Positions 9,867-11,472 of a stretch of 24,000 nucleotides of DNA are shown in pieces; the first letter of the stretch is position 1, and each line of letters opens with the position of its first letter. Location of the stretch: the NCBI GenBank assembly GCA_018238965.1, contig JABCSI010000008.1:9380-33379 (forward strand). The letters run 5' to 3'. The position numbers and the translations under genes are program-made. This DNA comes from Promethearchaeota archaeon (lineage in GTDB: Archaea; Asgardarchaeota; Lokiarchaeia; Sigyniarchaeales; Promethearchaeaceae). The notes beneath the pieces are model-generated. The model made no database searches and was not told where the DNA came from. It saw only the letters and a program-made list of their open reading frames with translations.

Positions 9867-10583
9867 TTAATTTGTTGGTTTTGAAGATGAAAGCAGACAT
9901 TGACCAAGCAATTGGCGATTATTTTCAACAAATTTTTTCCCAAATCCTTTGATGTCGTCAAATTTCTCTGGATTTTCCAAAAGAGCTCGAATAATTGCGA
10001 TTGGACTGTCAAATTCAGTTAATAATTTTTTTGCCTTTTTTCTACCGCAATTAAGCAATCCTTCGATTAGATACTCTTGAGCTTTTGCCAATAATACCGT
10101 TTTCGCCCGCGAACGGGACAAAGTTGGAGGCAGATCTTCTATTTGTTCTCGTTTAGCGATTCTTGTCAATATTTCTGCACTATCCTTGGCATTTCTGGAA
10201 GGCATCATTATAGGGCAGGCTGATTCTGTCTGTGAAAGAAATATCGACAGCATTATTTTTTGAATTGTTTTACGTTTCTCTTCACCCCATCGGTGGAATC
10301 CTTCCAAGATTACCACCCCCCATATATGATGGAGGAAAAATTCTTCTATTCTGGATTCGATTTGTGTGGCTTTTTTAGAGGTTCCCATATCGGGTGCCGT
10401 AATGTATAGAACTGCACCACCAGGTGGGATCAATATTAATCCTGAATCGTGGTCAACTGTCAAGATTTCAGTGGACTGATTGGGCAACTCGGTCATAACC
10501 ATTTTGAGTTTTGCCGAAATCTTAAGGGGAAATTGAAACAACAGTTTTAGTGGGGATTCCTTGGGTGGGTGAGAAACTACCAT
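9867..10583 (-). CDS. ERCC1-like non-catalytic ERCC4-fold protein with a C-terminal (HhH)2 domain
   Basis: 238 aa. It has the same domain order as the neighbouring XPF-like protein. The ERCC4-like core ends ACPIMMPSRNAKDSAEILTRIAKREQ, against HIPIIPTLNEAETAALVFTLAQREN in XPF. (HhH)2 region: LLNCGRKKAKKLLTEFDSPIAIIRAL...IKGFGKKFVENNRQLL. The GDY...ERK...D catalytic signature is absent; the equivalent stretch reads GGAVLYITAPDMGTSKKATQIE. The start could instead be the internal Met at 10502 or 10496. Confidence 0.55.
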   Translation of the reverse strand: MVVSHPPKESPLKLLFQFPLKISAKLKMVMTELPNQSTEILTVDHDSGLILIPPGGAVLYITAPDMGTSKKATQIESRIEEFFLHHIWGVVILEGFHRWGEEKRKTIQKIMLSIFLSQTESACPIMMPSRNAKDSAEILTRIAKREQIEDLPPTLSRSRAKTVLLAKAQEYLIEGLLNCGRKKAKKLLTEFDSPIAIIRALLENPEKFDDIKGFGKKFVENNRQLLGQCLLSSSKPTN

Positions 10584-10623
10584 AATATTGGCTATCCTTG
10601 TGGCTTCTTTGTTATTGGTATTC

Positions 10624-10680
10624 TAATTAAGATAATAACCATTAATTAAGGTAATAATCATTAATTAAGTAACTAATTTG
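10624..10680. repeat. Three tandem 19-bp repeats (TAATTAAGATAATAACCAT / TAATTAAGGTAATAATCAT / TAATTAAGTAACTAATTTG) in the divergent ERCC4-pair promoter region
   Basis: The TAATTAAG core recurs at 10624, 10643 and 10662 with an exact 19-bp period. The last unit abuts or overlaps the TTG start candidate at 10678. Confidence 0.8.
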
Positions 10681-11472
10681 TGCTATGGGGAAGGTAGGGA
10701 TGATTTATTGTCGCAAATAAAAATTGTAATGGATGAACGGGAAAGGGGACAAATCAGAGAAGAATTTCTTAAATTGGATTCTGATACCAATTTCAATCTC
10801 GACCTTACCATCGAAACACTGGAATATGGGGATTATATTATATCACCCCGTTGTGCAATTGAACGTAAACGCGGGGACGATTTTGTTGCTAGTATTTTCG
10901 ATCAACGATTATTTTTGCAACTTCAAAAACTCCGAGAAGCATACCTATATCCGGTTCTGGTGCTGGAGGATTCAAAACGGATGTTTTCTAGGAAATTTAT
11001 AAATCCCAAATCCATATATGGGGCATTGATCTATGTAAGTACCCGAATGCACATTCCGATTATTCCTACACTAAACGAAGCCGAAACTGCAGCACTGGTT
11101 TTCACCTTAGCTCAGCGAGAGAATCAACTCGGATGGAATAATGTGGGAGTTTCTCAAACATCTCATCCCGATGCGCTTCAAAAATCTGTGTCAGTCTCTT
11201 CCGAGGATCAAGAATATTTTCTGCAGGGATTGGTTGATATTGGTTATGCCAGAGCGCAAAAATTTCTTGAGGTTTTTCAAACACCGGAAATAATTCTGCA
11301 TGCCCTTGATTCAACGACAGTTGGATTTACTTCGGGTGGAAATCCCAAAAACATCTCTGGAATATTATCTACCTTTCCAGGAATAGGTCCCAAAATTGTT
11401 TTCCGCAACCAACAACTGCTCAACACATCATATAAACGTGCAAAAAAAGAAAAAATTAAAACTAAAAAGTGA
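10678..11472 (+). CDS. XPF/Mus81-family ERCC4 nuclease (short archaeal XPF type) with a C-terminal (HhH)2 domain
   Basis: Canonical ERCC4 signature IKIVMDERE...GDYIISPRCAIERKRGDDF (GDY-x8-ERK-x2-DD, nt 10828-10881). (HhH)2 region: GLVDIGYARAQKFLEVF...FPGIGPKIVFRNQQLL. The conserved first strand IVMDERE lies upstream of the first ATG (10729), so a TTG start (10678 or 10708) is required; a stop at 10666-10668 closes the frame. Confidence 0.85.
   Translation: MCYGEGRDDLLSQIKIVMDERERGQIREEFLKLDSDTNFNLDLTIETLEYGDYIISPRCAIERKRGDDFVASIFDQRLFLQLQKLREAYLYPVLVLEDSKRMFSRKFINPKSIYGALIYVSTRMHIPIIPTLNEAETAALVFTLAQRENQLGWNNVGVSQTSHPDALQKSVSVSSEDQEYFLQGLVDIGYARAQKFLEVFQTPEIILHALDSTTVGFTSGGNPKNISGILSTFPGIGPKIVFRNQQLLNTSYKRAKKEKIKTKK

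Follow-up and report, generated by a model that had tools for sequence, protein, structure and literature searches.

Is the pairing of one active with one inactive ERCC4 subunit, which to our knowledge was previously known only in eukaryotes (XPF-ERCC1, Mus81-Eme1), also present in archaea? The question is raised by two genes, here called A and B, which lie head to head in 24,000 nucleotides of DNA from a Promethearchaeota archaeon of the class Lokiarchaeia (GenBank assembly GCA_018238965.1, contig JABCSI010000008.1, positions 9,380 to 33,379 of the forward strand). This whole stretch is called the window, and coordinates are counted from its first letter. ERCC4 nucleases are obligate dimers, which associate through nuclease-nuclease and (HhH)2-(HhH)2 (double helix-hairpin-helix) contacts. 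The characterised archaeal XPF and Hef enzymes are homodimers of one gene product, and the Aeropyrum pernix XPF homodimer has been described as asymmetric in its function on DNA. Asymmetric heterodimers of ERCC4 proteins count as a eukaryotic innovation, and the homodimeric archaeal XPF/Hef is the "ancestral state" in the textbook account. A sequence-only reading of the window had described B as an active XPF-like nuclease and A as its dead, ERCC1-like paralogue, and had proposed the pair as a candidate ancestor or analogue of the eukaryotic heterodimer. In this study, we found that A and B are a conserved and selected pair in Lokiarchaeia, predicted to be dead and active, respectively, and that the same split is therefore also seen in the closest archaeal relatives of eukaryotes.

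9867..10583, minus strand: gene A, a 238-amino-acid (aa) ERCC4-(HhH)2 paralogue, predicted dead; candidate non-catalytic subunit
10678..11472, plus strand: gene B, a short XPF-type ERCC4 nuclease, predicted active (Pfam ERCC4, PDB matches, model)

The two open reading frames (ORFs) and their head-to-head orientation were confirmed as described. ORF A is identical to the database gene call P0001 (238 aa) and ORF B to P0006 (247 aa). Contigs of NCBI and Logan encode proteins identical to both ORFs; of the relatives with names, the nearest belong to "Promethearchaeota archaeon", Promethearchaeum, Lokiarchaeum and Harpocratesius. The length of B is 264 aa from the TTG at 10678 and 247 aa from the ATG at 10729. 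A TTG start seems the more likely: relatives have a first β-strand ahead of the DxRE motif, and B includes this strand (IKIVMD) only from a TTG.

10732-10746, plus strand: DERER of B, the upstream DxRE motif (translation)
10828..10881, plus strand: catalytic signature of B, GDYIISPRCAIERKRGDD (translation; in 24 family members the D, E, R, K and D do not vary)
11200..11448, plus strand: (HhH)2 domain of B, including the N..LL helix and the first part of the Lys-rich tail (HHH_5, model, alignment)
11314..11361, plus strand: 16-aa insert of B, TTVGFTSGGNPKNISG, consensus YTKxGNPKGIxG, which marks the Asgard-type XPF subfamily

By sequence and model, B is a canonical short archaeal XPF, a predicted structure-specific endonuclease with all catalytic residues intact. 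The Pfam ERCC4 match of B scored 89.5 bits against a cut-off of 24 bits (E 2.4e-25). When B was compared with PDB sequences, the E values for the Pyrococcus furiosus Hef nuclease 1j22, A. pernix XPF and human XPF were 1e-20, 1e-11 and 2e-6, respectively. The AlphaFold model of B had a predicted local distance difference test score (pLDDT) of 85.1, and Foldseek placed it on the Hef nuclease domain 1j22 with a template modelling (TM) score of 0.89, a root-mean-square deviation (rmsd) of 1.4 Å and 36% identity. Five helices at residues 158-240 of the model make up the (HhH)2 domain. The full signature GDY-x8-ERKRGDD, which had been read from the letters alone, is present in B together with DERER and the downstream S..D.R...Q, and all are invariant in 24 relatives. 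The ERCC4 domain, the catalytic signature with DxRE and the C-terminal (HhH)2, by which members of the ERCC4/XPF family are recognised, were all found in B. The insert was modelled as a β-hairpin (strands 197-200 and 206-210, pLDDT >90), and the linker of the B family is variable, without an AKREQ-type motif.

The C-terminus of B (11407-11472, plus strand) carries the tail NQQLLNTSYKRAKKEKIKTKK, which consists of Q-x-x-L-x-x-S-Y and a Lys-rich stretch. This tail, which A lacks, is kept across the B family. In pattern only, it is similar to a PCNA-interacting (PIP) box; crenarchaeal XPF is PCNA-dependent.

9891..10100, minus strand: (HhH)2 domain of A (HHH_5 and Hef HhH2 1x2i matches; model helices 163-231)
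10101..10157, minus strand: linker motif of A, AKREQIEDLPPTLSRSRAK, the most conserved stretch of the A family
10140..10550, minus strand: nuclease-like (ERCC4-fold) domain of A, residues 12-148, which aligns with B and with Hef nuclease domains
10416..10439, minus strand: A-family motif LILIPPGG ([IV]-x-I-P-P-x-G), beside the former active-site hairpin

The fold of A was less easily recognised. A Pfam search with A as a single sequence gave no ERCC4 match and only a weak HHH_5 match (E 0.007), and the best matches of a single-sequence phmmer search against the PDB reached only E 0.2. These searches are too weak for A, so profiles and structure were needed. BLASTP aligned A with B over 164 aa at 26% identity (E 3e-10), and the NCBIfam Hef nuclease model matched A at E 4.6e-15. 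The profile check that had been proposed for A thus came out negative with Pfam ERCC4 and positive with NCBIfam and family profiles. A profile of the 35 members of the A family aligned end to end with A. pernix XPF (2bgw) and both Hef domains (E 5e-4 to 5e-3), and hhalign matched the A family to the B family over 221 columns with a probability of 99.8% (E 5e-28); hmmalign to the hidden Markov model (HMM) of B left the N-terminal half of A unaligned, and a MAFFT merge and hhalign were used instead. The AlphaFold model of A had a pLDDT of 82.8. The top Foldseek matches of this model were ERCC4-family chains only (XPF, ERCC1, Eme1, Hef, FANCM and FAAP24), with E values of 3e-8 for A. pernix XPF, 2e-6 for ERCC1 in the XPF-ERCC1-XPA complex and 4e-6 for Eme1, the range for XPF, ERCC1, Eme1, Hef and FAAP24 being 3e-8 to 1e-4. 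The nuclease-like domain fitted 1j22 with a TM score of 0.77 and an rmsd of 3.3 Å. These results confirmed A as a paralogue of B, with (HhH)2 after an ERCC4 fold.

A also has conserved motifs of its own. In the IPPxG motif, which aligns with the segment of B between GDY and ERK, I52, P53 and P54 are at least 90% conserved among the 35 sequences. In the linker (AKREQIEDxPPxLSR), R145, Q147, D150, P153 and R157 are invariant in the same set; the pLDDT falls below 50 at residues 151-161, which indicates that this region is flexible. The (HhH)2 domain has two Lys-rich hairpins (LNCGRKKA and KGFGKKF) and an N..LL terminal helix, with G175, L176, G180, K183, G213, G215 and N222 invariant. The shared tail noted earlier, NNRQLL in A and RNQQLL in B, was confirmed and proved to be a derived character of the subfamily.

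The results of the merged alignment confirmed that A is without catalytic residues and is thus predicted to be dead. The position of the GDY Asp is F, I, L or V, and the ERK position reads L-[ILY]-L, in 35 of 35 A-family members; in the protein of the window, GDY has become GLI and ERK has become LYI. The catalytic GDXnERKX3D motif, by which a nuclease of this family is recognised, is therefore absent from A. The sequence-only reading went too far in one respect, since the family is not free of acids: the first Asp of DxRE is kept in 24 of the 35 members (it is Pro in the window), and the last Asp of ERKxxxD is kept in 23 of 35 (Asp65 in the window). That reading had also considered displaced catalytic residues, and no alternative conserved acidic pair with a Lys was found in residues 1-140 of the 35-sequence alignment. 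Compared with the L019 orthologues, the ratios of nonsynonymous to synonymous substitution rates (dN/dS) of A and B were 0.16 and 0.12, respectively. A is thus under purifying selection, and its own conserved motifs (IPPxG, linker, Lys-rich hairpins) together with the dN/dS of 0.16 indicate a working gene and not a decaying copy.

10584..10728, no strand: putative shared divergent promoter region (sequence)

One catalytic and one non-catalytic ERCC4-(HhH)2 paralogue thus occur in the same genome, and the arrangement is kept across Lokiarchaeia. Divergent adjacency of A and B was found in the window, Promethearchaeum syntrophicum MK-D1, three Promethearchaeum metagenome-assembled genomes, Harpocratesius repetitus, two uncultured genomes and L019, and it persists across about 40-45% protein identity in A. 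In L. ossiferum, A and B are parted by a 3.9-kb insertion. The gap between the two genes depends on the start codon of B: the 94 bp first described hold if translation starts at TTG 10678, and the gap widens to 124 bp for TTG 10708 and to 145 bp for ATG 10729, which is the start in the database. Its length at the other Lokiarchaeial loci is only about 50-110 bp. The promoter region of the window also contains a tandem 19-bp direct repeat at 10624-10661 (TAATTAAGATAATAACCAT / TAATTAAGGTAATAATCAT). It is not conserved in the promoter regions of Promethearchaeum, Harpocratesius or L004, and we set it aside as an operator because other genera lack it.

The losses in the two genes are complementary: A keeps the linker motif without catalysis, and B keeps catalysis without the linker motif. 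The AKREQ motif also occurs in active enzymes of the P0072/P0114 type; by this comparison, A inherited its linker from ancestral XPFs, and the Lokiarchaeial B has lost it. Two proteins that join such modules were also found. P0127 consists of a Hef-type helicase, a dead (ADF...VRM) and then an active ERCC4-(HhH)2 module; its two modules group together in 68 of 200 bootstraps of the neighbour-joining (NJ) tree, which suggests a separate tandem duplication. P0113 (locus L013, 5001-6494) consists of an A-like and then a B-like module in a single chain, and in a local MAFFT alignment A-type and B-type sequences both fall on its C-terminal half. Like A and B, these proteins combine a dead ERCC4-(HhH)2 module with a B-like or active one; they differ in that the modules are fused and not split, and P0113 is dead in both halves. 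We consider that the fusions support the pairing of unlike modules.

From the complementary loss, the conserved head-to-head arrangement and the fusions, we infer that A and B fairly probably form an asymmetric heterodimer, a structure-specific endonuclease that has one active site. In such a complex, B would give the sole active site (DxRE, GDY, ERKxxxD) and the Lys-rich, PIP-box-like C-terminal tail. A would give the second nuclease-fold domain and the second (HhH)2 domain, completing both dimer interfaces, and would add its two Lys-rich DNA-binding hairpins and the linker AKREQIEDxPPxLSR that B has lost. The IPPxG surface at the former active site of A, which is new and conserved, would possibly bind a partner. 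The complex would cut flap, fork or bubble junctions, as other XPF-family enzymes do, and both subunits would be expressed from one short divergent promoter region. The substrate specificity, the co-regulation and the role of IPPxG are our proposals.

6470-7657, minus strand: prenyltransferase α-α toroid protein gene, which flanks the cluster
7732..9342, minus strand: 536-aa actin-family protein gene (Pfam Actin E 5.6e-72, DZR E 5.5e-7)
9423..9842, minus strand: gene C, a 139-aa ModE-type winged-helix protein (NCBIfam ModE_repress E 2e-16)
11480..12133, plus strand: Rce1-like CAAX protease gene (Pfam Rce1-like E 1e-8), kept downstream of B

The pair lies in a conserved block with the order prenyltransferase, actin-family/double zinc ribbon, ModE-type winged helix-turn-helix (wHTH), A, and then B and the Rce1-like protease. 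Gene C begins 24 bp past the stop codon of A and is probably co-transcribed with it, to judge from the spacing. A, C and the actin-family gene are co-directional with gaps of 24 bp and 80 bp, and the actin-family gene is perhaps co-transcribed as well. Its product has a double zinc-ribbon insert at residues ~350-430. C adjoins A in 8 of 8 further Lokiarchaeial loci with enough flank, and the actin-family gene follows A and C at all Lokiarchaeial loci that were examined, L. ossiferum included. C could regulate the divergent promoter or serve as a third component that binds DNA. On the other side, the Rce1-like protease gene starts 8 nt past the stop of B, and it is probably co-transcribed with B. 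Against L019, the dN/dS values of the wHTH gene, the actin-family gene and the prenyltransferase were 0.11, 0.09 and 0.20, respectively; C is thus also under purifying selection. The prenyltransferase and the Rce1-like protease, the two enzyme types of eukaryote-style CAAX processing, flank the cluster again in MK-D1 and other Lokiarchaeia; no CAAX box was found at the C-terminus of A, B, C or the actin protein.

Several findings weigh against the A:B heterodimer. The linkage of A to the wHTH and actin-family genes is at least as tight as its linkage to B, and it stays in L. ossiferum, where B is displaced. P0069 (L003), a divergent A-family member, has no ERCC4 gene within ~3-4 kb. The B-like half of P0113 is degenerate (ADY...RVY), so this protein is no active/dead fusion. 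B could homodimerise and act alone, like the characterised archaeal XPFs. A may instead be a non-catalytic protein that binds DNA junctions or serves as a scaffold without B, either as a homodimer or with the ModE-type wHTH and zinc-ribbon actin-family proteins, with roles such as DNA tethering, segregation or a chromatin-like function. It would then be likened to FANCM-FAAP24 or Zip2-Spo16, which bind branched DNA without cutting. The co-directional and syntenic A, C and actin genes in every locus with enough flank, even in L. ossiferum with B 3.9 kb away, would fit such a role, as would the two Lys-rich HhH hairpins kept in A, a two-module protein that is dead throughout (P0113), and divergent dead relatives that lie in operons with membrane proteins and not with nucleases. 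We nevertheless regard this explanation as unlikely, although it deserves some weight, since adjacency to B has been conserved over the ~40-45% identity of A and the complementary loss fits a partnership. ERCC4-fold domains are, moreover, not known to be stable on their own, without a like-folded partner to dimerise with; an A:A homodimer would meet this need.

The same paralogy, dead site and shared promoter region would also be expected if A were a regulator or inhibitor whose heterodimers titrate B away from active B:B homodimers. Among pseudoenzymes, the dead paralogue that poisons a homo-oligomer is a known type, and A would be a dominant-negative one. We think this improbable: the long-term head-to-head co-expression of an inhibitor with its target is less parsimonious than an obligate complex, and the loss in B of a linker motif that A keeps suggests dependence over antagonism. 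It is very improbable indeed that A has remained an enzyme, be it through catalytic residues moved to other places in a PD-(D/E)XK-like fold or through a different chemistry. The two partly kept acidic positions and the nearly invariant E94 and R98 of A could be read in this way; against it stand the uniformly hydrophobic residues at the GDY Asp and the ERK Glu and Lys, the Pro in place of the first Asp in the window, and the negative search for another acidic pair with Lys. An asymmetric A:B nuclease accordingly stays the explanation that we favour.

The proposed A:B complex can be compared with several known systems. The eukaryotic XPF-ERCC1, Mus81-Eme1/Mms4, FANCM-FAAP24 and Zip2-Spo16 likewise consist of paralogous ERCC4-(HhH)2 chains, one with GDXnERKX3D and one without. 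In the XPF-ERCC1 type, the dead subunit resembles A in that the fold and the canonical DNA-binding hairpins are kept and a new conserved surface stands at the former active site, and the model of A matches the ERCC1, Eme1 and FAAP24 chains (Foldseek E 2e-6 to 3e-5). There are also differences: unlike eukaryotic XPF, Mus81 and FANCM, B is short and has no helicase-like N-terminal domain, and unlike those of XPF-ERCC1, the genes of the proposed A:B heterodimer are adjacent and divergent. B has the same domain order, catalytic motif and fold as the short archaeal XPFs (A. pernix 2bgw/2bhn, Sulfolobus) and Hef (P. furiosus 1j22, 1x2i), and A has their fold and the conserved AKREQ linker, which Hef also has. 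In contrast to these archaeal enzymes, B contains an inserted β-hairpin within (HhH)2 and its linker is variable, and in Lokiarchaeia a dead paralogue is conserved beside the active gene.

Is this pair an ancestor or an analogue of the eukaryotic one? An exhaustive profile search yielded 405 relatives. The motif-less proteins that resemble A form one clade of 62 modules, supported by 141 of 200 bootstraps and by 128 of 200 when human sequences were included; all trees were NJ trees with long branches, and eukaryotes were represented by two sequences. This dead clade includes the divergent members P0092-P0111 and P0120. The human XPF and ERCC1 sequences were verified as 100% identical to PDB 6sxa (ERCC1: 6sxa_G). 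Human XPF was recognised by B with 55 bits. The HMM of A gave only 2.6 bits with human ERCC1 100-297, and the hhalign probability was 3%. ERCC1 paired with human XPF among the canonical modules (96 of 200 bootstraps) and never with the dead clade (0 of 200).

Discrete characters, scored for HhH spacing and tail by column-based counts, told more about the origin. Between the first HhH motif and the second hairpin there are 15 residues in canonical XPF/Hef, human XPF and ERCC1, and the last-helix pattern of canonical XPF/Hef modules is I..[VIL][LIV]; human XPF and ERCC1 have neither the N..LL tail nor the 16-aa insert. All 56 of 56 B-like modules have ~31 residues between the HhH motifs (the insert) and N..LL. 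In the dead clade N..LL occurs in every member, and the divergent members keep the ~31-residue insert spacing with YTKxGNPKG; the spacing in the Lokiarchaeial A family is 18 residues. N..LL is thus common to A and B, and the insert to B and the divergent relatives of A, which is a further difference from XPF-ERCC1. An orthologue of ERCC1 should show a specific relationship to ERCC1 and the 15-residue spacing without Asgard-type characters, and A shows neither. We therefore ruled out A as an ERCC1 orthologue by the 2.6 bits, the 0 of 200 bootstraps and the shared N..LL and insert characters. The term "ERCC1-like" holds as a functional analogy and does not hold as a specific affinity.

The presence of N..LL and the insert in both the dead clade and the B-like modules places the duplication that produced A inside the insert-bearing subfamily. 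In the NJ tree the dead clade stands next to the B-like XPFs, with the joint clade in only 17 of 200 bootstraps, so that the placement rests on the discrete characters and not on the tree. We propose that a duplication within an Asgard-specific subfamily of XPF produced the two genes and that complementary loss then set them apart; this split seems, from these characters, to be independent of the eukaryotic XPF/ERCC1 split. Of the two origins named in the sequence-only reading, analogue is favoured, and the indel and motif characters that A shares with Asgard B-type XPFs speak against ancestor. It is also conceivable, but rather doubtful in our opinion, that the active/dead split predates eukaryotes and that A/B, or the dead clade that keeps the insert, is the direct precursor of XPF-ERCC1 or Mus81-Eme1. 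Eukaryotes would then have lost the 16-aa insert and N..LL later, and the divergence of ERCC1 or Eme1 would have gone too far for the kinship to be recognised. More speculatively still, within this precursor scenario, the conserved A-wHTH-actin operon might mark an Asgard connection of a junction-binding pseudonuclease with an actin-related protein and foreshadow nuclear Arp-containing complexes of repair or chromatin.

A and B are thus apparently an archaeal, convergent version of the eukaryotic active/inactive ERCC4 pair, adding a case of convergent duplication and then complementary loss. In the literature on Asgard/Lokiarchaeota XPF-family and nucleotide excision repair proteins, we found no published description of an inactive archaeal ERCC4 partner. 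A review of Asgard biology from 2026 (PMC12993045) names XPF, XPD and XPB-Bax1 only, and a partner subunit is not mentioned in it. Members of the A family are labelled "hypothetical protein", "HhH domain protein", and occasionally "ERCC4 domain-containing" or "ERCC4-type nuclease"; the last label is wrong for them and can be corrected. The pair is found in two cultured species, P. syntrophicum MK-D1 and L. ossiferum, and two proteins of ~240 aa are a small, operon-like and tractable system for the role of a dead ERCC4 subunit, such as DNA positioning, partner recruitment or regulation.

Beyond the Lokiarchaeial pair, 6 loci of the divergent dead relatives were examined, and in 3 of them an active ERCC4 lies at a distance of 0.7-5 kb, which speaks for the pairing of dead with active proteins; one of the 3 is a RadA/helicase/HIRAN repair neighbourhood. 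At one Heimdall-group locus (Kariarchaeaceae; P0033, L020), no dead paralogue was found in the 5 kb of sequence available to one side of the B-like gene, and on the other side the contig ends just past the gene. Locus L017 (1-7087) contains RadA/Rad51, two small unknown genes, an 873-aa superfamily 2 (SF2) helicase, an active ERCC4 (divergent), a 433-aa membrane-type protein, the dead ERCC4 P0120 and a HIRAN-domain protein. The locus resembles a compact island of repair genes around an active/dead ERCC4 pair of a second type.

A homologous protein of ~320-440 aa with hydrophobic N- and C-terminal segments precedes each of these divergent dead ERCC4 proteins (blastp E 1e-36 to 1e-72), at the following places:

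L012, 2521-3741
L015, 3005-4234
L016, 1201-2526
L017, 4700-6001
L018, 4160-5119

In the loci of the divergent dead ERCC4 proteins, the stop codon of one gene often overlaps the start codon of the next, and a multi-pass membrane protein is usually encoded between or beside them. Such a membrane context is unexpected for a DNA-binding pseudonuclease. Single ERK substitutions (EYK, EFK, EIK, KRK) were also seen in otherwise canonical XPF/Hef modules (P0158, P0165, P0179, P0146, P0126 and P0200), and these may be further independent steps toward inactivation, or tolerated variants.

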